Shown here in pieces: positions 6,690 to 64,000 of a DNA stretch of 64,000 nt (positions within the stretch are counted from its first letter, which is position 1; every line of letters begins with the position of its first letter). Both the position numbers and the translations under genes were made by a program. The notes under the pieces were generated by a model that was not told where the DNA came from, did not search any database, and saw only the letters and a program-made list of their open reading frames with translations. The DNA comes from Squalus acanthias (lineage: Eukaryota), in assembly GCA_030390025.1 (NCBI GenBank), contig CM059431.1, forward strand, positions 120,034,001-120,098,000, in the 5' to 3' direction.

Positions 6690-6859
6690 GTGAGGGGAGA
6701 AGGGGAAAAGTAAGAGGTGCATTCTTAAACCATCTGCAGTTTGTAATTTAGAAGAGAGTGTGGGATGATGGGGAAGTGGGATGTGAGAAGAAGGATTATG
6801 TATGAGGATACCATATTCTTTGATGGTTTCAGCCCTGCCACAGGCCACGGCCTCAGCAA

Positions 6860-8481
6860 TGTAAGGGTTTGGACGTGTCTCTCAGAGACGGTGCTGGTGC
6901 GAGGTTAGGCCTTCGTTGCCTAATACTATTGCTTGCTCTGGTCTCCGGCCAGCCCTTTTGCAATAAGCACCTGTGAGTGATTCGACCCACTCACCCTTAT
7001 GGTTCTAACACTGGACTTAGGTGCAGGGAGCAGTAATGCAGAGAAAACTCAAATAGACCCGGTTGAATAGTACGAAATGGAAATCTTTATTGCATAGCGT
7101 CCAAAATCATGAAGTACATGTCATAGGCGCAAATTAACGAGAGTACAAGTATACATACATTCATAAAGCTTGGTCTATGGAAATGAAGAATGAACGGCAC
7201 ATCGTAAAAAGGGGAACACATTATACTTTAACCTTAATAAAACCACCCTCCCTTAACAATACCTACACTACGTCTAGATTTGTAGGATCGGGTAACATGC
7301 TCACCACTCGTGTTACTTCGGAGAATTTTAAAGTGAGGCACTCGGCTCGTTTCGCTGCAGCGCCTGACTGTCACGTGTTTGGAAGGGTCTCTGTACCCCA
7401 CTTGTTTATTTTCGCTGCTGCGACAAGCAGGCCAGACTCCCTGTTGTCATGAAGAACTCGACAGAACTCGGAAACGTTTGTAAAATTCAAAGAAGAGTCT
7501 TCCTGTGCTCGACACTGGTTGTCGGTAGACTTCAATGAAAAGTTCTTTATTTATATTTTCGGGCGCGGTCGGGGTTTACTGACCGTGGCGGCACGTGGAT
7601 TCTTCTCCTCTTCTTCTCGTCTCGTCTCGTCTCTTCGGGCCTCCGGGTCCAGACACCGTTTACCGACACTCGGGATGGTGCACCCTGTTACTTGCCCTTG
7701 TCGGGGCAGCTCGTTCCGATTGAGCTCCACCCAACATCCGAATAACCGACCAGTACGGCTAAAAGTCAAGAGTCAACAAAGTCCAGCCCTAAAGAAGAGC
7801 TTCAGCCAGCGATCGAGCGAGTCAAGGGAATAAGAGAGCGATGGACATTTGTTCACTATAGTTATAGTGATGTGTTCCCTTATCTCCCGCTCAAATCTTA
7901 ATGTTTGTCCTTTGTGTAATACTGGTGCACAAAACTCCCAGCATGGGGCGGTTGTCTTCTTTAACGGGTTTCGGTAGCACCTGAAACTGGCCAACTATCC
8001 GTTAATGTTTTCCCCATTGTTGACCCAGCCAGGATGTGTACGAATCGTCTCCCTGACTGGTTTTGGGGGCCCCCGAATACTTGCTTAATCACCCGTCAAT
8101 GTCTCTCTCATTGTAGAGCCGGGGGGGTATTTGTGTATTGATGTGTCTGGATGGGCCTTCGATTGCCCAGTACAATGGTCCTTACTTGTGCATGAAAATG
8201 ATTCCAGCACTTATATCTTTGCTATTGTTCCAAATGCAAACGGGTTGCATCCTGTCTTTATCAATGTTTACCGAGTATGATCCAATCTTATATTGAATGT
8301 TTATTCGACGCCATTTTGTCTGCCCACTGTGTCTCTGGAAGCTTCTGCCACGATGCTCAGCGGCCATTTTACAGGCTTCTGTGTCCTTTATTATCAGGAC
8401 AGCATTTTGTTTAATAAAACTGATCAAACGAATCTGTTTCTCTTATGTTATTTCGAATCGCGATAATTGCGAAACTTTACA
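6860..8481 (-). repeat. 3' LTR (1622 bp)
   Basis: Near-identical to 13902-15527; on - a TATAAATA near 7549-7556 and AATAAA at 7086-7091. Confidence 0.95.
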
Positions 8482-8609: not shown

Positions 8610-10620
8610 TCATTTCCCAGAGAAAATTACATTGTCTAAACTTGGACAAACCGTAGGCATCATTGCCTTTAAACTTAAACTTACAATTCGCTGTTGTGCC
8701 ACTTGAACTTCAGCCCTGGGTTTAAAACAGAAACTGCTGTCACTCACCGGACACCGGCTGTGCTGTCCATGCTGGTAGTGTTGCACTGCAGTGGTGACGC
8801 AATACGTTCCACCCCCTATGTATGCCACCTGTGGGGGCACATGATCTTGTGTCATTGCTTCCATGGTGCAATTCATGGGCTTCGCGCCAGCCGTTCTGAA
8901 CCCGCATTGTGGTGTTAAAAAGGCATTCAAGTGCTGGGGACACAGTATGATGTGTGCTCCCCGGCCACGACAACCCGATAGGTCGGTACCTGTCATCGTT
9001 TGCTCCCAGCGGATGACGTAAGGTGGGACCGCTGCGTAGCGAATGTGGGCTCCCCCCTGAATGACACCAATGTTCTCCACCCGGTACACCGGGGCGGGCT
9101 TTGCTGTGTCGCCCAACACCGGCATCCATAGTACTATACCCATGATGGTATGATTTGACTGTCCGCAGTCCACTGGGACTGGGTATGCCTCTGAGGCTAG
9201 CCTGAGCTGGCACGGGCTTAATGCGTTCTGAAAAGGGTGGAGCGCCTGCAGGTGTTTGTTACTTATCCAGGACGGGACCAAACCTTGTTTTAAATCCTCC
9301 AAATTACTGCGGCCCTCGCCCAGTAACCACGCCCCGTATAGTACGCACACCTCGTTCTGCGCAGCTTGGTCGGATGCATTCCGATCTTCCCTGTTCAGGG
9401 CATTTACCGTTCTCGCGTGCTTCTCCAGCTCTGCTATAATCTCTTTTAAGTGTAGTGTCATGGCCTGGTGCTCATGTACTTCAGACCCTACAACCTTGTT
9501 TTCGCTTGTGAGGATGCTTTTTAACTGTGTTTTTAAACCGTTGATCTGGGTCTGCAGCTCCACATTGTCTAGAGCGTTGACCACAGACGTTCCCGTATTA
9601 AAAGCAGTGAACACATCGTTCACAACACCCCTTCTTTGTCTCCCCACCTGACCCAAAACTTTGTGTGGTGTGGTGTATAAGCTTGTTTTGTCAACCTCCG
9701 CAAAATCAAACTCATAAAATTGCCTGAACATGTTTGTTAACAGGACCTGGTACAATTGTTCCGTTTCTTTGGGACACCACTCTGGTAAACGCACCTCGGT
9801 GAGATTTAAAATCACCGAGGCCACCGCGTAATGTACCCCTTGATATAGTATCTGGTCCGTTGGCACCAGTACCAGACCATTCCCGGGCCCCTTAGTGGTT
9901 TTAGGGCACCCTTCCTCCTGAGCCAAAGCCACCGGAATCGTGGGTGGAGACTTGCGTGGGCGTGTGATGAGTTCAGTGGCGTTTACCGGGATCGGGGAGA
10001 AAGGAGCTCCGCACCCCCTGGTGCTGACATCCCACCTCATCCCTTTCCCGTCATCCTGCCACTGTCGTAGGAAAAAATATGGATATACCCTTGGGGCAAA
10101 CGTACTTCGATCCCCACATACAAACATATATTCCCTCATCCGGTTCCCACCATTTGTCCCAACAGACTTTCAATTGTCCGTTAGTCCCCGTAATTGTCCG
10201 ATGGGTATTGTTACCCAATCGCTCCCACTCAACCGAGGAATTTCTCATAGTCTTGCTTAACTTCCGTAACCACCACCATCGGCTCAATGGGACCTTCCCA
10301 TTGCATGTCAAACAAATCCTTTTGCCGACGGTGACGCTGATTCTGGGTGCAATGATCCTCACCCTGGGACACAGTAAAGAAGTCTCTTTGTAGGCAAATC
10401 CGGATGCGCTGGAGTAAACCGTTGAATTCGTTCCCAGCCATCCCGGCTACCTTCCCTTGTGGAAATAAGTGGCGGTTTCCTCAGCCTCTCGCTCCCCGGT
10501 CCCATCCGTTGCGATAGGGGCCGTGTCCCCGGAGCAACCGAACACAACGACATCCTTGGTGAGGCCCCGATAGGCCAATCCATATCCGATCGTTGCGAGC
10601 ACTATCAGAATCCTTTCCAT
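8610..10620 (-). pseudogene. env: env-like gene: signal peptide + Ig-like domain + F-type class I fusion glycoprotein; one stop, one frameshift, no TM anchor
   Basis: ATG at 10620 reads MERILIVLATIGYGLA; in-frame TAG at 10447-10449; CLTC...W...DEGIYVC; +1 shift (possibly the A6 run at 10072-10077) into ORF 8610..10139 with furin-like RQRR (9630-9641), heptad region and Cys-rich domain. Confidence 0.8.
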
Positions 10621-10891
10621 ATCTCCTGGTTCCTGTGATCAGATAAAATGATGTAGCCAGCCTCCCAAGAGTCTCTGGCTTTTGTGAAGGGTGAGCGGGT
10701 CCCTTGACCTCGTCTCACGTAAAAAGACATGTATGCTGGATAGACTTTAACTATTCCTATCACTAACTCCCATCATTTTACCATTTACTTATAAAAATTA
10801 AACTACAATCTTACCAAACTTAAAAACACTATAAACTTAAACTTATCCTAAACTTAACTGTACAGCGCCGCCCGTTCCCAGGGCGGCCTAC

Positions 10892-12097
10892 CTAAATTCT
10901 GCGAAGGCTGCCACGAGCTTTTCCCAGTGGCGGGGGGGCACTGACCCCTTCCTTTGATCTACCGCAGCCTGTCGCTGCTGCGCTGGGACTGGGATCTCCC
11001 TGGGCTGCCTTGAACTTACGCCTGGGGGTGTACGGGGGATTTGACCACGACTTCCTGGGCTGGGGTGTCCGACTTGACCTTCGGAGGGCTACCTTGGGCA
11101 AGATCTCCAGGGCCGACGGACCGGGAACCGAGACTACCACCGTCACGGCCTGTGGTCCCACCACAGCCGCCGGCTCCGTCTCCCCTGGCTCCGCCCCCCT
11201 GGGCTCGGGATTTGCGGTTTCCGACTCCACCCTACTTGTATGTGGAACTCCACTCGCAATCCCTATCTCCCCTGTGGGCAAGATTTCCAGGGCCGACGGA
11301 CCGGGAACCGAGACTTCCACCGTCACGGCCTGTGGTCCCACCACAGCCGCCGGCTCCGTCTCCCCTGGCTCCGCCCCCCTGGGCTCGGGATCTGCAGTTT
11401 CCGATTCCACCCTGTGTGGAACTCCACTCGCAATCCCTGTCTCCCCTATGCTTGGGTCGAGGGCGAAACCTTCGTCCTCCGACCCCACCACCTCTCCGAC
11501 CGGGTCACTACCTTGATCAAGCTCTCCGAGCTCTTCCTCATCTGAATCCCAACCCCAAGAAAAGATCCTACACTTTTCCAAAATGTCTTCTCCCCTCACG
11601 CAGGCTGCTTTACCGGCCTGTGTGCCCTGCGGTTCTACCCGGGGCTGAGAGTCCCCACTCGCAGGTTTGGCCCCTCCCCTAAGACAGGCCACCGCCCCTG
11701 CTTGTGCATTCTGTGTAATCTCGCCTGCTGGAGGCTGCAGATTTCTATTCTGTTTTAGTTTGGGCAACTCTGCTACCATGGCTTGCAACTGCGGGGTGGT
11801 GAATTCCCCCGGGGTTGTTGAGCAAACCATCCCTCTGGCTTTGGATAGGGCTTGGGTCAGACCTTTTATCCTTTCCTCACAGGGCCCATGGTTTAAAACC
11901 TCATACTCCCTGCTCCTGGCTACCCTGTAGGCTGCCTTTATGTCTCTAAGCTGCCCTTCTAGCCCATCTATTTTCCCCATTAAGCGGGCGTTCTCCTCCC
12001 GCAAGGCATGCTCTTTTAACCTGGCCTCCTTACAGGAGACCCCCTCCTGTGCGTGTCTTTCAAGGGGACACAGGTAGGCAGGCTGCACCGGTTCCAG
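10892..12097 (-). CDS. ORF2: in frame after the gag TGA; divergent Gag-like coiled coil + Pro/Glu-rich duplicated segment + basic tail
   Basis: Open for ~400 codons; TGA CTG GAA CCG GTG continues the gag frame; similar to the Gag N-terminal half; no PR, RT, RH or IN motifs. Confidence 0.65.
   Translation of the reverse strand: MEPVQPAYLCPLERHAQEGVSCKEARLKEHALREENARLMGKIDGLEGQLRDIKAAYRVARSREYEVLNHGPCEERIKGLTQALSKARGMVCSTTPGEFTTPQLQAMVAELPKLKQNRNLQPPAGEITQNAQAGAVACLRGGAKPASGDSQPRVEPQGTQAGKAACVRGEDILEKCRIFSWGWDSDEEELGELDQGSDPVGEVVGSEDEGFALDPSIGETGIASGVPHRVESETADPEPRGAEPGETEPAAVVGPQAVTVEVSVPGPSALEILPTGEIGIASGVPHTSRVESETANPEPRGAEPGETEPAAVVGPQAVTVVVSVPGPSALEILPKVALRRSSRTPQPRKSWSNPPYTPRRKFKAAQGDPSPSAAATGCGRSKEGVSAPPPLGKARGSLRRI
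11095..11447. repeat. ~180-bp in-frame tandem duplication inside ORF2
   Basis: tgggcaagatYtccagggccgacgg begins at 11095 and 11275; peptide GIASGVPH...PSALEILP occurs twice. Confidence 0.9.
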
Positions 12098-13897
12098 TCA
12101 GAAGTCTGGGTTGTATGGGGCTGTTGCTACCTCCCCGTGCAAAATCATAAGAGACCGCATGGCTCCTAACATTGATTCTATCGCATCGGGATGGATAGGC
12201 ACACCAGCTCCTTTCTCAGAGACAGGCGCTTGGGTTCGGACTGCGGGAGCTTTGTCCCTGGAGTCCTTCCAGGGATTCCTGCAGTTTTTACGCCAGTGAC
12301 CTGTCTTCCCGCACCCGTAACAAACACCACTGGTTTGTGGGGCGCGATTTCCCTCCTGATGCCACTCTTTCTGAGCCGGAGCTGCGGGCTTTGCCTCATG
12401 CACCTTTCCCTTAAGGGGACGCGCTCCCGTGCTCCTAGTGTTCCGATACCCTATGGTGAGTCGATTTAGGACAGACTCCTCCGTTGTGGCGGGGTTAGTG
12501 GGATCAAACCACGCTCTGGCCTGCTCCCTGACGTCTAGCAAGCTGTTGGCTACCATGCACCTGAGCCAATGAGCTTTCCCGGCGCCGTCCAGATAGGTGC
12601 GCGCTGGCGCACCTGGGCAGCTACGCTGGTATACTGGCCACAGTCTGTCGGCGAAAACCTTCGGGGGTTCTCCCTCCATCTGTATGGTTTGACTCAATCT
12701 GACGAACGGACCTTCGTCATCCGCCCCTAACACTTCTAGGACCTCGTCCCGTAACTCCTCATAGGTTTTATTTCCCTTCTTGCTCTCATCGGAGAGACAC
12801 TGAAGGATCGAGCTATCTAAAGAGAACAGCAATATTTTGGTCTTTTCCTCATCGTCGCAGCCATTAATTGCTGCGGTCTGTTCTACTTCCCTAAAATGTA
12901 CGGAAGGGTCATCTGATTCGGACAGCTTCCGTACATGGCTAATCATTGCTCTCAGCTGGTGTGAGCTGTGGGGCAATACAAGTTGGTTCAGGACATCCCC
13001 GTCTTCCCCATTGGCTGCATTCGGGCCTCTCTTGTGACCTCGGAGCGGACACATCGGTCCCGGTCTCGACTCTACCTCCGGGGATTGTCCTACCTCGGGA
13101 ACCTCCTTCTCTATTTCCACCACTTCCTCCCTTACCCAGGTTGCCGAATAGCTGGGTGGCGCGGAGGGCACAGTGGCAAATACGTCATCTGCTTTGTCTG
13201 GTAGGGATTTTGGGAATTCCCTACCCACCTGTGGCTGGCTCGCTGATGGGCTGATGAGACACACCAAGCCGTTTGCCTTATTCAGGGCCTCTTTTAGGTT
13301 CCCTATCTCCTTCTGGCAAACACTGTGGTCGGCTCCCTCATGCCTATCCTCGAGGGCCATCTTGTATGCAGCCCTAACTCCCTTCAAGCTTTCTTCCTGG
13401 GCTTTTATCTGGTTTGCTAGGTGGGCGCACCGTTCTCTAATCCTTCCCTCGTTTAATTTTGCTTCCGTGACCTGACATTCTAGGTAATCAGTTTTAGCCT
13501 CATGGTGGTTGGCTACTATTTGGCGTTCCTGATGTAATGCATTCAATGATGCAATGAGTTTTTTTCCTCCCGTGACCTTTTCCTCCATCTCTACCTCCAG
13601 TTCCCTGATCTGAGCTGCCTGTGCCACAATGACCTGGTCCGAAAGTTGGACTTGCTTCTTGTAGCACATCAGCCAGACTGCTTTCTCCACCGACTTCTTA
13701 TGCTCTTTACTGCCTGTCCATTTGATGGCAGCGTCTAGCGGACGCTTATCCATCAGTAGGTCACTTATCCACCTTTTGGTTAAGTTAACCTTCCCAAACA
13801 CATAGTCGGCTACCCTCTCATCCATCACATTTCGCCTATTCAAACCAGGGTCTAAAACATAACTCTCCCGCTGCCAATGTCCTGCCGCGGTCGCCAT
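12098..13897 (-). CDS. gag: Gag polyprotein, 599 aa, intact
   Basis: Coiled-coil N half; PSAPPSY late domain (13148-13168); capsid MHR-like QMEGEPPKVFADRL; CX2CX4HX4C knuckle CYGCGKTGHWRKNC (~12281-12322). Confidence 0.9.
   Translation of the reverse strand: MATAAGHWQRESYVLDPGLNRRNVMDERVADYVFGKVNLTKRWISDLLMDKRPLDAAIKWTGSKEHKKSVEKAVWLMCYKKQVQLSDQVIVAQAAQIRELEVEMEEKVTGGKKLIASLNALHQERQIVANHHEAKTDYLECQVTEAKLNEGRIRERCAHLANQIKAQEESLKGVRAAYKMALEDRHEGADHSVCQKEIGNLKEALNKANGLVCLISPSASQPQVGREFPKSLPDKADDVFATVPSAPPSYSATWVREEVVEIEKEVPEVGQSPEVESRPGPMCPLRGHKRGPNAANGEDGDVLNQLVLPHSSHQLRAMISHVRKLSESDDPSVHFREVEQTAAINGCDDEEKTKILLFSLDSSILQCLSDESKKGNKTYEELRDEVLEVLGADDEGPFVRLSQTIQMEGEPPKVFADRLWPVYQRSCPGAPARTYLDGAGKAHWLRCMVANSLLDVREQARAWFDPTNPATTEESVLNRLTIGYRNTRSTGARPLKGKVHEAKPAAPAQKEWHQEGNRAPQTSGVCYGCGKTGHWRKNCRNPWKDSRDKAPAVRTQAPVSEKGAGVPIHPDAIESMLGAMRSLMILHGEVATAPYNPDF
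13879..13896 (-). promoter_or_regulatory. Primer binding site, tRNA-Arg (probably TCG)
   Basis: TGGCGACCGCGGCAGGAC is complementary to GTCCTGCCGCGGTCG-CCA, the vertebrate tRNA-Arg(TCG) 3' end as recalled; 5 nt downstream of the 5' LTR. Confidence 0.8.
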
Positions 13898-13901
13898 TTT
13901 C

Positions 13902-15527
13902 TGTAAGGGTTTTGGACGTGTCTCTCAGAGACGGTGCTGGTGCGAGGTTAGGCCTTCGTTGCCTAATACTATTGCTTGCTCTGGTCTCCGGCCAGCCCTT
14001 TTGCAATAAGCACCTGTGAGTGGTTCGACCCACTCGCCCTTACGGTTCTAACACTGGACTTAGGTGCAGGGAGCAGTAATGCAGAGAAAACTCAAATAGA
14101 CCCGGTTGAATAGTACGAAATGGAAATCTTTATTGCATAGCGTCCAAAATCATGAAGTACATGTCATAGGCGCAAATTAACGAGAGTACAAGTATACATA
14201 CATTCATAAAGCTTGGTCTATGGAAATGAAGAATGCACGGCACATCGTAAAAAGGGGAACACATTATACTTTAACCTTAATAAAACCACCCTCCCTTAAC
14301 AATACCTACACTACGTCTAGATTTGTAGGATCGGGTAACATGCTCACCACTCGTGTTACTTCGGAGAATTTTAAAGTGAGGCACTCGGCTCGTTTCGCTG
14401 CAGCGCCTGACTGTCACGTGTTTGGAAGGGTCTCTGTACCCCACTTGTTTATTTTCGCTGCTGCGACAAGCAGGCCAGACTCCCTGTTGTCATGAAGAAC
14501 TCGACAGAACTCGGAAACGTTTGTAAAATTCAAAGAAGAGTCTTCCTGCGCTCGATACCGGTTGTCGGTAGACTTCAATGAAAAGTTCTTTATTTATATT
14601 TTCGGGCGCGGTCGGGGTTTACTGACCGTGGCGGCACGTGGATTCTTCTCCTTTTCTTCTCATCTCGTCTCGTCTCTTCGGGCCTCCAGGTCCAGACACC
14701 GTTTACCGACACTCGGGATGGTGCACCCTGTTACTTGCCCTTGTCGGGGCGGCTCGTTCCGATTGAGCTCCACCCAACATCCGAATAACCGACCAGTACG
14801 GCTAAAAGTCAAGAGTCAACAAAGTCCAGCCCTAAAGAAGAGCTTCAGCCAGCGATCGAGTGAGTCAAGGGAATAAGTTAGCGATGGACATTTGTTCACT
14901 ATAGTTATAGTGATGTGTTCCCTTATCTCCCACTCAAATCTTAATGTTTGTCCTTTGTGTAATACTGGTGCACAAAACTCCCAGCATGGGGCGGTTGTCT
15001 TCTTTAACGGGTTTCGGTAGCACCTGAAACTGGCCAACTATCCGTTAATGTTTTCCCCATTGTTGACCCAGCCAGGATGTGTACGAATCGTCTCCCTGAC
15101 TGGTTTTGGGGGCCCCCAAATACTTGCTTAATCACCCGTCAATGTCTCTCTCATTGTAGAGCCGGGGGGGTATTTGTGTATTGATGTGTCTGGATGGGCC
15201 TTCGATTGCCCAGTACAATGGTCCTTACTTGTGCATGGAAAACGATTCCAGCACTTATATCTTTGCTATTGTTCCAAATGCAAACGGGTTGCATCCTGTC
15301 TTTATCAATGTTTACCGAGTATGATCCAATCTTATACTGAATGTTTATTCAACGCCATTTTGTCTGCCCACTGTGTCTCTCTGGAAGCTTCTGCCACGAT
15401 GCTCGGCGGCCATTTTACAGGCTTCTGTGTCCTTTATTATCAGGACAGCATTTCGTTTAATAAAACTGATCAAACGAATCTGTTTCTCTTATGTTATTTC
15501 GAATCGCGATAATTACGAAACTTTACA
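13902..15527 (-). repeat. 5' LTR (1626 bp)
   Basis: Direct repeat of 6860-8481, followed on - by the PBS. Confidence 0.95.
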
Positions 15528-16135
15528 GCAATGACCCTTCCAATAATGGCCAGCACCATTTCCTGCATGGGCGTTAGAAAATGCAGGCGTGCCTCTCCCC
15601 CTCTGGTTAGTTCCTTTCGCCATTGGTTGTGTGCCACCTTCTCCTGCAAGAGAGAGGGAAGTGTGTAAGTGAGTGTCATGCAATATGTTTGGGTGATGTG
15701 GCTGCCATGATTGAATAGCTGGCAGTGTGTGTAAGCTGTGAGATTTGAGTGTGAGACTTGCAGCAGTGCTAAGTGTGTCAGGGTGAGGTGAAGCATATGT
15801 ATGTTAGGTATGAGTCCTGCTTGATAGAGATTGCTGCTAGTTGAGTGATGGAGTTGTGGTGGTCTGAGCAGTGGCTGAGGCTAATGTTGCAGTTGTTAGG
15901 ATATGGCATTTGAAGATGTATTCACTGACCTTGACCAATCGTGTGAGGTTAAACATCTTGCGGCACTGCATCCAGATCCTTGGAACTAGACACCTGGCTA
16001 TCTGCTCCCACTGCTTTTTCACTGTGTATCTGGAGGGCCTCCTGGCCCCCTGTGGATACAGGACATCGCTCCTCCTTTCCCCACCTCCATCAAGACCTCC
16101 AGCTTTGGAAAACTTTGGTGCCTGCTTTCTCCCAT
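15528..16135 (-). pseudogene. Exons 1-2 of Harbinger Myb/SANT-like gene; exon 2 split by the provirus and resuming at 6859-6812
   Basis: KKQWEQIA...RIWMQCRKMFNLTR then GT donor at 15929; acceptor ttgcag at 15644, EKVAHNQ...LAIIGRVIA, continuing EAVACGRAETIKE beyond the TSD. Confidence 0.75.
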
Positions 16136-61017: not shown

Positions 61018-64000
61018 ATGGCAGACACGAACGCAGTTTCCGTGAAACTGCCGGAGTTTTGGGAAAACCAGCCCGAAGCCTGGTTCCTCCAAGTCGAGTC
61101 CCGGTTCTGGCTGCGACACATCACCACAGATGGGACGAAGTACGACTACCTCGTCACATCACTCGGTAGCTGCACAGTTACGAAGGTCTGGACAGCGCTG
61201 CAGAACCCACCAGAGGAGGGCAAGTATGCACATCTTAAGGCCGCGCTCCTTAAAAAATTTACGGCCTCGGCATACCAGCGAAACTGCCACCTCCTCGACC
61301 TTCCAGGCCTCGGGGATGCCTCACCGTCAGACCTCCTCGCCCACATGCTCTCCCTCACCGACGAGAGCCCACCCGGATCCCTCTTCCGCACGCTGTTCAT
61401 CCGCCAGCTACCTCTCAGCATCCACCCAGCGATCATGGCGTCCGGCCTCACGGACCTGGAAGCCCTGGCCGATGAGGCCGACAAGCTGCTGTCCGCTCAC
61501 TCCAGCCGCGACGTCACTCCGGACCTGGCAGCCACTGCCTGGGCGCGCCCTTCACTGGCCACCACGCGGCCACAAGGCCCAGCCACCGGGCTCACGGGGC
61601 CTTCGCACCCCACTAACCCGGGCCACTGTTACTATCACGCACGGTTCGGCGCCAGGGCACAACGGTGCATACCTCCCTGCTCTTTCAAGTCCGCCCCCGT
61701 ACCAGCCCCCGCGATGGCCGTGGGCCAAGTGGGCTCCCTGCTGTACGTCACGGAGGACAAAACCGGCCGCCGGTTCCTGTGCGACACTGGAGCTCAGCAC
61801 AGCATCATCCCAGCCTCCTCCCTCGACATCCGAAAGGGCAAACGAGGACTGGCGATGGCTGCTGCTAACGGCTCGGACATCCGGACGTACGGCACCCGCA
61901 CAATCACCCTCAACCTCGCTGGTCGCCGCTACCGATGGGAGTTCATCACTGCCAAGGTGCTCTCCCCTCTCATCGGCGCAGATTTCCCGTGTGCCCACGG
62001 CCTACTGGTAGACATCCCTCGACACTGCCTCGTGGACATGAACACCATGTCCCCCATCCTGGGCGCCATGGCCCCCCGTCAACCCGCCGACATGGCGTCA
62101 CAGTGCCACGCCCGGGCCACGGATGACTACTCGGCACTCCTGGCCGAATTCCCGGCCCTTACCAATCCTACCTTCTCCGCGGAGGCCGCCAAACACGGGA
62201 TGGAACACTTCATCCCCACCACAGGCCCCCTAGTGTACGCCCACGCCCGCAGGCTGGACCCGGCCAAACTGGAGATCGCGTGGACCGAGTTTGCCACCAT
62301 GGAACAGCTCAGCATCATCCGCCGCTCCAACAGTCCCTGGGCCTCCCCACTCCACATCGCCCCCAAACCAGGCGGGGGTTGGCACTCCTGCGAGGATTAT
62401 CGCAGCCTCAACGACGCCACCACCCCTGATCGGTACCCCATGCCACACATCCAGGACTTCTCGGCTAGACTGGCCGGCCGTTCAGTCTTTTCCAAGGTCG
62501 ACCTGGTGCGCGGCTACCACCAAGTCCCCGTCCACCCCGCAGACGTCCCCAAGACGGCCGTAATCACCCCCTTCGGCCTTTTCGAGTTCCTGCGGATGCC
62601 CTTCAGCCTCAAAAACGCAGCCCAGGCATTCCAACGGCTCATGGACTCGGTCCTTCGGGACCTGAAGTTCCTGTTCGTCTACCTGGACGACATCCTGGTA
62701 GCCAGTTCCTCCAAGCAGGAACACCTCGAACACCTTCGCATCCTGTTCGGGCGCCTCAGCGACCACGGGCTCATCCTCAGCCCAGCTAAATGCCAGTTCG
62801 GCCTGGACAAGATCGACTTCCTCGGCCACCACATCACCCATGCTGGGGCCATTCCCCTGCCCACCAAGGTGCAGGCCATCCAACAATTTCCCCGCCCCAC
62901 CACCATCAAAGGCCTCCAGGAGTTCCTCGGATGGTGAATTTCTATAACTGCTTCATCCCCAAAGCGGCGTCCCTCATGAGGCCCCTGTATGAAGCCCTCC
63001 GGGGCAGGAGCGGCAAGATGGCGGTCGAATGGACGGCAGACGCGTCCGCCGCCTTCGACTCCACCAAGACCGCGCTTGCCAACGCCACCCTGCTCGCGCA
63101 CCCACGGCCCAATGCCAGGGTAGCGCTCACCACGGACGCCTCCGACCACGCGGTCTGCGCCGTGTATGAGCAGTGGGTCGACGGCGCCTGGCAACCACTT
63201 GCCTTCTTCAGCCGCCAACTACACCCCCCGGAGGTCAAGTACAGCACCTTCGACCGCGAGCTCCTCGCGCTGTTCCTGGCGGTCCGCCATTTTCGGTTTT
63301 TGCTGGAGGGCCACCCCTTCACTGCGTTTGTCGACCACAAACCCCTGACGTTCGCAATGGCAAAGACAACCGACCCCTGGTCCGCCAGGCAGCAGTGCCA
63401 GCTCGCGGCAGTGTCCGAGTTCATCACGGACATCCAACACGTCTCCGGCCGAGACAATGTGGTAGCCGACTGCCTCTCCCACCCCGCCATCCACGCCGCA
63501 CACCTGGCAGTCGACTACGCTCAACTCGCAGCAGACCAGATCACCGACCCTGATCTGCTCTCCGCACCTACTAACCTACCAGGGCTACGCCTGGCCGACG
63601 TCGCCTGTGACCCAACCGCAGTCACGGTCAAGTGCGACATATCCCTATGTCAACCTCGGCCCGTCGTCCCAGCGTCCTGGCGCCGCCGGGTATTCGAGAT
63701 TCTCCACAACCTCTCCCACCCTGGCGCCCGCGCATCCATCAAATTGGTAGCCAACCGCTTTGTCTGGTGCGGCCTTCGCAAGGATGTGCGTACTTGGGCC
63801 AACTCCTGCCTAGCCTGCCAACGGGCCAAGGTGCAGCAACACATGAGAGCACCCCTCGAGTAATTTACCGTCCCTTCGCGTATATTCGACCACATCCACG
63901 TGGACATCGTCGGGCCCCTGCCGCCGTCGCAAGGCCACACGCACTTGCTGACGATCGTTGACCGCACCACGCGCTGGCCCGAGGCAATTCCACTGACCTC
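61018..64000 (+). pseudogene. Gag-Pol polyprotein with a frameshift at ~62930 and a stop at 63861-63863
   Basis: KLPEFW gag; CYYH...C...C; FLCDTGA protease; YLDD RT; TDAS RNase H; H..SH...CLAC integrase zinc motif; HVDIVGP. Confidence 0.92.

Follow-up and report, generated by a model that had tools for sequence, protein, structure and literature searches.

A pol-less endogenous retrovirus of Squalus acanthias with a mosaic, partly Gag-derived open frame behind the gag UGA-C stop

In the mouse, an in-frame deletion within intracisternal A-particle (IAP) elements produced 1-delta-1, a nonautonomous form with a novel gag-pol fusion that acts in cis; the majority of new insertions stem from this form (PMC6466679). 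UGA-C and UGA-CUA(G) are a weak termination context, as stated in a preprint (bioRxiv 10.1101/2021.04.18.440353), and some lokiretroviruses carry an extra "smc" coiled-coil gene (PMC7947760). Here, we describe a provirus in a 64,000-nucleotide stretch of the Squalus acanthias genome (assembly GCA_030390025.1, contig CM059431.1, positions 120,034,001 to 120,098,000), hereafter called the window, whose positions are used throughout. It has no pol of its own and derives from a retrovirus of which this genome also contains many young copies with open Pol frames. Behind its gag stop codon, in the same frame, lies an open reading frame (ORF2), which we regard as probably the remnant pol frame of a pol-less endogenous retrovirus (ERV), likely translated as an extension of Gag on the occasions when UGA-C is read through. 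Our literature search, which left out the supplements of PMC7947760, found no paper describing this pol-less family or its layout.

All parts of the provirus are on the minus strand, and those on which the argument turns are the following:

12101..13897, minus strand: gag, 599 codons from the first ATG and 575 from MDERV.
13244..13468, minus strand: the part of Gag similar to ORF2, residues 120-194 when counted from MDERV.
12098..12100, minus strand: the gag stop codon TGA, followed by CTG GAA.
10895..12097, minus strand: ORF2, 401 codons in the gag frame, with its first Met at codon 40.
12062..12097, minus strand: ORF2 codons 1-12, a diverged version of the protease leader (LEPVQPAYLCPL versus LKPAQPVYLCPL).
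11807..12031, minus strand: Gag-like helical module, ORF2 residues 23-97, from BLASTP, shuffles, and hhalign.
10895..11674, minus strand: the Pol tail, ORF2 codons 142-401, which lies C-terminal to integrase, from tblastn and blastn against pol-bearing copies.
11095..11413, minus strand: a 180-nt (60-codon) tandem repeat of two units in the Pol tail (139 nt at 96% identity, spacing 180).
11676..12135, minus strand: the diverged core (last 11 gag codons, TGA, leader, and insert), delimited by a gap in blastn and a drop in identity.

The gag frame is open over 13924..12101, with its ATG at 13897, and encodes a protein with a helical region at its N terminus, the sequence PSAPPSY, and a single CCHC knuckle (Pfam zf-CCHC, E = 0.001). 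An earlier note, made from the sequence alone, had observed that gag ends in TGA CTG and that the frame then stays open for ~400 codons; we confirm this, as ORF2 runs for 401 codons, none of them Met upstream of codon 40, and closes at TAG (10894..10892).

To place ORF2, we compared the provirus with its relatives. A search of the animal's own genome (3.7 Gb) with the end of gag retrieved many copies, a minority of which lack the query's last six residues. In pol-bearing copies, gag ends ...VVTGPTDATTPSTGTQ, then comes TGA CTA AAG, and the same frame goes on as LKPAQPVYLCPLSYDAWKRPLVEMEVEKQKGSYLLDTGAS, which is protease. Two such copies, read end to end, contain the Pfam domains RVP, RVT_1, RNase_H, Integrase_H2C2, and rve, followed by a long tail; Pfam detects no protease, reverse transcriptase (RT), RNase H, or integrase in ORF2 or the rest of the window provirus. 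When the provirus was aligned to these two copies by blastn, the long terminal repeat (LTR) plus gag (15444..12134) and the Pol tail plus env (11675..8683) found their counterparts, and the 460 nt between them (12134..11675) remained unmatched. LTRs, gag, and env are 92 to 98% alike between the provirus and pol-bearing copies; by part, identity to the pol-bearing copies is 92% in the LTR, 93% in gag, 96% in env, and 91% in the Pol tail. The leader LKPAQPVYLCPL precedes a DTG protease in the pol-bearing copies, and ORF2 codons 13-141 are a 129-codon insert with no detectable DNA-level match in the pol-bearing relatives; the only significant match to the insert in the two copies is their gag helix. 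Relative to these copies, ~1218 pro-pol codons have been replaced by 129.

These alignments indicate that the pol slot consists of the two ends of pol joined via a piece with a Gag-derived helix and that it holds no Gag paralog. The earlier note had instead proposed a divergent Gag paralog, an accessory Gag-like gene occupying the slot as a whole. A significant match of 75 residues, together with a second block that is colinear though weak, speaks for such a paralog, and the Gag-derived similarity is real over ~75 of the 401 residues. The remainder of ORF2 contradicts it: 260 residues are Pol tail, 12 are protease leader, and no capsid or nucleocapsid counterpart is present (hhalign aligns residues 23-97 only, and Pfam finds no knuckle). 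The mosaic alignment therefore led us to reject a whole paralog, which is almost certainly wrong. A variant of the same proposal, in which the first pol codons were joined to an accessory Gag-derived gene, holds insofar as the first codons are indeed a protease leader and fails insofar as neither of the two pol-bearing copies has such a gene.

Within its limited extent, the resemblance to Gag is strong. BLASTP of Gag against ORF2 returns an ungapped match with 28 of 73 residues identical (E = 4e-13). The Smith-Waterman score is 141, against a mean of 35.7 (standard deviation [SD] 5.6, maximum 65) for 1000 shuffles of ORF2 1-141. Comparison of coil with coil only scores 139 (shuffle mean 29.1, SD 5.2, maximum 55), heptad-preserving shuffles average 30.6 (SD 5.7, maximum 57), and a reversed-sequence control scores 40. 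The real score lies ~19 to 21 SD above the shuffled controls, helix-only and heptad-preserving ones included, so that the pairwise check called for earlier places the similarity far above shuffled coiled coils (139 to 141 versus maxima of 55 to 65). Profile-profile comparison of 19 ORF2 N termini with 19 Gag sequences by hhalign aligned ORF2 23-97 with Gag 120-194 over 75 columns (probability 95.9%, E = 5.9e-9). The last pair of blocks matched by eye in the earlier note, QLQAMVAELPKL / QLRAMISHVRKL, fared less well: it is colinear with the module, but with a 44-residue query it is weak alone (tblastn E = 0.25 and 0.049), and hhalign leaves it unaligned.

Pfam reports for ORF2 a single subthreshold match to a Rab11-FIP3 coil (E = 0.14), a protein homologue search with ORF2 1-141 among longer proteins accepted 0 of 447 candidates, and the ESM Atlas returned for the same segment only generic unnamed helical clusters at 0.86 to 0.90, with no lead. 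In an AlphaFold2 model built on an alignment of 16 copies, ORF2 is predicted to form helices at residues 22-62 and 71-92 (predicted local distance difference test [pLDDT] 66 to 72) and to be disordered from residue 117 onward (mean pLDDT 41.5; Pol tail below 40). A predicted complex of Gag 60-200 with ORF2 13-100 yielded no verdict, at a score of 0.06 against a mark of 0.34. We also considered ORF2 114-141 as a homologue of the integrase end, but the DNA aligns too poorly to support this. The idea came from one subfamily (L028 and about ten other loci, e.g., L057, L060, L065, L067, and L069-L071) in which the first ORF2 helix is joined straight to the integrase end (...SREYEDLNQCKLYKPGAQG...); its junction with the Pol tail differs from that of the window copy and is likewise in frame.

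The module is old. Over the 73 aligned codons, it differs from the element's own gag at a proportion of 0.87 of synonymous sites (pS) and 0.43 of nonsynonymous sites (pN), and other registers average a pS of 0.74; for the same codons, pol-less and pol-bearing gag differ by only 0.195 and 0.058, respectively. Synonymous sites are thus saturated, in line with the old duplication claimed earlier. The sole database relative found for Gag is a skate protein, P0001, which is 60% identical over its full length. It is annotated as "uncharacterized protein LOC... isoform X2" of skate and is either an ERV gag that the annotation lists as a gene or a gag that has been domesticated. The module is 36% identical to skate Gag and 38% identical to the element's own Gag. 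Because it is equally far from both and its synonymous sites are saturated, the module diverged from gag long before these lineages separated, and the comparison indicates that it is anciently diverged from gag and not a recent self-copy.

The core around the module is set off from its flanks. Measured per 40 nt against a pol-bearing copy, identity is 95 to 100% through the last 560 nt of gag, to 12141, and past ~12140 it falls abruptly to 75%, 78%, and 45%; it is back to ~91% at 11675. Over the final 11 gag codons, the stop context, and the leader, pol-less and pol-bearing forms are only ~75% alike. Such a sharp drop between flanks argues that the core has a separate history, and the simplest reading is that the 460-nt core is an old cassette whose flanks would have been renewed by recombination with the current helper. 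An exact-pattern search for a donor lineage, with a pol-less-type leader followed by a DTG protease, gave 0 matches, a weak negative as an exact match was required.

The stop codon itself was examined in 68 pol-less copies, picked solely by the similarity of their last 200 Gag residues. TGA CTG GAA is in frame in 67 of them, and one has TGG. In that copy (L076; G000 contig C1, about 122513694), TGG in place of TGA would join gag directly to ORF2, which has two single-base deletions further on. Among the pol-bearing junctions retrieved, 19 of 20 have an in-frame TGA and then CTA (18 CTAAAG, 1 CTAGAG), and one is frameshifted upstream; the two pol-bearing copies seen first likewise have TGA and then CTA in frame. 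The UGA-C context is therefore common to both forms, although the stretch around it is only ~75% alike. A fusion of Gag and ORF2, ~1000 residues long and made by read-through, is plausible by analogy, since an in-frame TGA-CT is also what the pol-bearing relatives have.

The pol-less form is abundant, with at least 214 copies. The exact 35-nt junction occurs genome-wide 214 times in its pol-less version and 32 times in its pol-bearing version, or 44 times with a CpG-tolerant pattern, although exact patterns undercount diverged copies and at least 115 RT matches exist against these 32 to 44 pol-bearing junctions. The RT matches, at 96 to 99% identity and many of them in open frames of 1437 to 1496 residues, mark potential helpers; the nearest solved structures to the RT of pol-bearing copies, by PDB sequence match, are foamy-virus and murine leukemia virus (MLV)-type RTs. 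Two further open frames at gag matches, of 1798 and 2070 residues, were rejected as pol, since reading L043 revealed a satellite array inserted in gag. At L043:7043-9901 (G000 contig C1329), a long tandem array stands in place of gag's N-terminal half; several of its frames are open, and the resulting frames of about 2000 residues had looked like gag-pol fusions. On G000 contig C3, about 64285289-64319048, at least six pol-less proviruses lie head to tail with a spacing of ~6417 bp, a tandem array rather than separate insertions.

To see which parts of ORF2 are maintained, we computed pairwise pN/pS, pooled across 64 copies, taking 95% confidence intervals (CI) from a bootstrap over codons and using both other frames as controls:

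Last 200 codons of gag: pN/pS 0.30 (CI 0.21-0.41); control frames 1.32 and 1.20.
ORF2 13-67: pN/pS 0.27 (CI 0.14-0.51); control frames 1.07 and 1.08.
ORF2 68-113: pN/pS 1.40 (CI 0.60-7.96); control frames 0.47 and 1.03.
ORF2 114-141: pN/pS 0.68 (CI 0.37-1.33); control frames 0.77 and 0.82.
Pol tail, ORF2 142-401: pN/pS 0.69 (CI 0.53-0.95); control frames 0.76 and 0.67.

An earlier run on 33 copies gave the same picture. ORF2 13-67 is under purifying selection as strong as that in gag.

Insertions and deletions (indels), for which pieces of complex events were merged by hand, tell of the reading frame. Among those common to at least two copies, 13 of 15 have lengths divisible by three: +69, -138 (33 copies), -162, -36, -3, -27, +15, -180 (twice), +6 (twice), +9, and +3; one unit of the 180-nt repeat is often missing among copies. 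The other two each add one base within the last ~17 codons. Private indels are multiples of three in 15 of 50 cases and single-base in 25 of 50, and the frame-breaking lesions are almost all private. As a control, we used the 253-nt noncoding stretch right past the ORF2 stop in 60 copies, where 6 of 33 shared and 5 of 30 private indels are multiples of three (Fisher p = 1e-5 for the contrast in shared indels). Shared indels thus mostly stay in frame in ORF2 and mostly do not in the spacer, which argues that multiplying lineages kept the ORF2 frame while neighboring DNA drifted freely. The conserved stop context and the protein-level selection on a Gag-derived helix in pol's place lift this family above an ordinary deleted provirus.

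A mechanism can be proposed for the read-through fusion. The pol-less RNA would be packaged, and enzymes that the autonomous copies provide in trans would copy it. Its UGA would be read through at low frequency, as that of Gag-Pro-Pol in the autonomous relatives would be, and the resulting Gag-ORF2 protein would enter particles via its Gag part, as Gag-Pol does. There, the first helix of the insert may aid the element's own propagation, on the analogy of the IAP 1-delta-1 gag-pol fusion; the old cassette would travel on flanks kept current by exchange with the helper.

Several observations weigh against this reading, and some of them would suit an ORF2 that is a functionless scar, open only because the family is young, in an element mobilized with or without it intact. 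The LTRs of the window copy are 98.4% identical across 1627 aligned bases, so the copy is young. The earlier note had named disruption of ORF2 in most copies as the finding that would count against it; ORF2, scorable in 66 of the 68 copies, is broken in 32 and extends at least to its normal end in 34, so that about half of the copies, and not most, are affected. Where both genes are readable (28 loci), gag is whole in 15 and ORF2 in 11, a loss per base about twice as high for ORF2. The 260 codons of the Pol tail lack frame-specific constraint (0.69 versus 0.76 and 0.67). The second half of the Gag-like module is partly or wholly gone in 41 of the 68 copies, in 33 of them via the 138-nt in-frame deletion, and is unconstrained where present (1.40, CI 0.60-7.96), so that the module as a fold is not essential. 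Further points concern the evidence for read-through. We infer translation past the UGA from sequence, and the multiple-of-three bias may stem in part from repeat units of 69 and 180 nt. The folding analysis proposed earlier was run on 81 and 111 nt from the UGA and showed no unusual stability (minimum free energy z scores of -0.67 to +0.65, pseudoknots not modeled), nor did Rfam report a family match near the stop; any read-through would therefore depend on the short context alone. The 30 nt past the stop have low diversity (0.015), as do some gag windows. A 7-bp hairpin seen by eye at +24..+52 was discarded: the pol-bearing form lacks it, and a pseudoknot that used it would leave no space for the loops.

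A mere scar is nevertheless unlikely. It would not account for codons 13-67, whose pN/pS of 0.27 is frame-specific and matches that of gag, nor for shared indels that are in frame in 13 of 15 cases against 6 of 33 in the adjoining noncoding stretch. Frame-breaking lesions would not be expected to be private, nor the stop and its context to be kept in 67 of 68 copies.

The frame might also be open for the sake of the RNA. Read-through can shield retroviral RNA from decay, and ribosomes that cross ~400 codons past the UGA would protect the unspliced transcript from the decay that long 3' untranslated regions incur. The Pol tail, which keeps its frame (indels of 180, 15, 6, 9, and 3 nt) with no codon-level constraint, is what such a role would leave behind. 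Codons 13-67, however, are constrained at the amino acid level, which mere ribosome transit does not need, and we consider this explanation quite improbable.

Less probable again, to the point of being very doubtful, is that ORF2 is made alone as a free accessory protein, from a spliced subgenomic RNA or by initiation at Met40. Complex retroviruses make accessory proteins by splicing, and Met40 is kept in the variants seen. Yet the selected region begins at codon 13, upstream of Met40, and ORF2 lies in the gag frame directly past a stop context common to the pol-bearing relatives. Contigs from four sequencing runs of unknown kind match the whole provirus in short pieces, and the only joint they contain in ORF2 is the 138-nt subfamily deletion rather than a splice.

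A more novel reading extends that of occasional read-through of a remnant frame, and we regard it as possible though on balance unlikely: the core would be an old, separately evolving hitchhiker cassette moved by recombination onto the currently active helper, and its helix would be an evolved adaptor, a Gag-Pol mimic made by read-through and taking over helper particles. If true, a hitchhiker cassette with an adaptor helix would explain why pol-less junctions outnumber pol-bearing ones.

The remaining parts of the provirus complete its layout:

13902..15527, minus strand: 5' LTR, starting with TG and ending with CA.
6860..8481, minus strand: 3' LTR, starting with TG and ending with CA.
13879..13896, minus strand: an 18-mer like a primer-binding site (PBS), starting with TGG, 5 nt past the 5' LTR.
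8613..10638, minus strand: a broken env, with a frame change near 10133-10169.

A 4-bp target duplication, TTGC, flanks the two LTRs at 15528-15531 and 6856-6859. The first in-frame ATG of gag (13897..13895) overlaps the PBS-like 18-mer, so that no leader separates PBS and gag; the N terminus that begins at this ATG, MAT..GHWQ, is also present in the skate homologue P0001. Env has no Pfam match and no PDB sequence match. In the window copy, its last ~135 residues, including the membrane anchor, are gone; in another copy (L043:2645-5014), it is 789 residues long. A subthreshold Rfam match to the archaeal snoRNA sR14 within ORF2 (11832-11884, minus strand; 22.4 bits versus a cutoff of 38) is taken as chance. 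Elsewhere in the window, an unrelated retroelement pol at 61738-63992 (plus strand) runs off the end and is 23 to 28% identical to Pol of the family studied here.

These results pair a polymerase-less parasite with its helper retrovirus in one genome, both young and abundant. The pol-less family opens the question of delivery by a bare UGA-C context in a vertebrate retrovirus and bears on what a nonenzymatic "Gag-Pol" gives to the spread of a defective provirus, addressed so far mainly for IAP 1-delta-1. They also carry a warning for annotation: an open frame in the pol slot is not necessarily a separate gene.

Among known systems, the pol-bearing copies of the same family (e.g., L045+L046) have the same frame layout and the same stop codon and differ in that pro-pol is replaced by the insert here and the gag end, stop context, and leader are only ~75% alike. 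Like read-through gag-pro-pol junctions in general, the locus has a single in-frame stop, a UGA, and the next codon starts with C (it is CUG here and CUA in pol-bearing copies). MLV-type read-through involves a pseudoknot. Unlike such junctions, the frame downstream encodes no enzyme here, and no stable downstream structure was detected. With the "smc" gene of some lokiretroviruses, our family shares a helical, coiled-coil-type extra coding element in a fish-type ERV, a likeness by description only.

The closest described analogue is IAP 1-delta-1. In both, LTRs and gag are shared with full-length copies of the same genome; in both, an internal deletion drops enzymatic pol and leaves an open frame joining its ends. 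IAP 1-delta-1 depends on full-length copies and outdoes them, and here the junction counts are 214 versus 32 to 44, from patterns that undercount diverged copies. Unlike in IAP 1-delta-1, gag is whole and has its own stop in our family, so that a fusion needs read-through, and all enzymatic domains are gone, not just some. Finally, a foreign, anciently diverged Gag-derived helix fills the gap here, and env is kept in the family.

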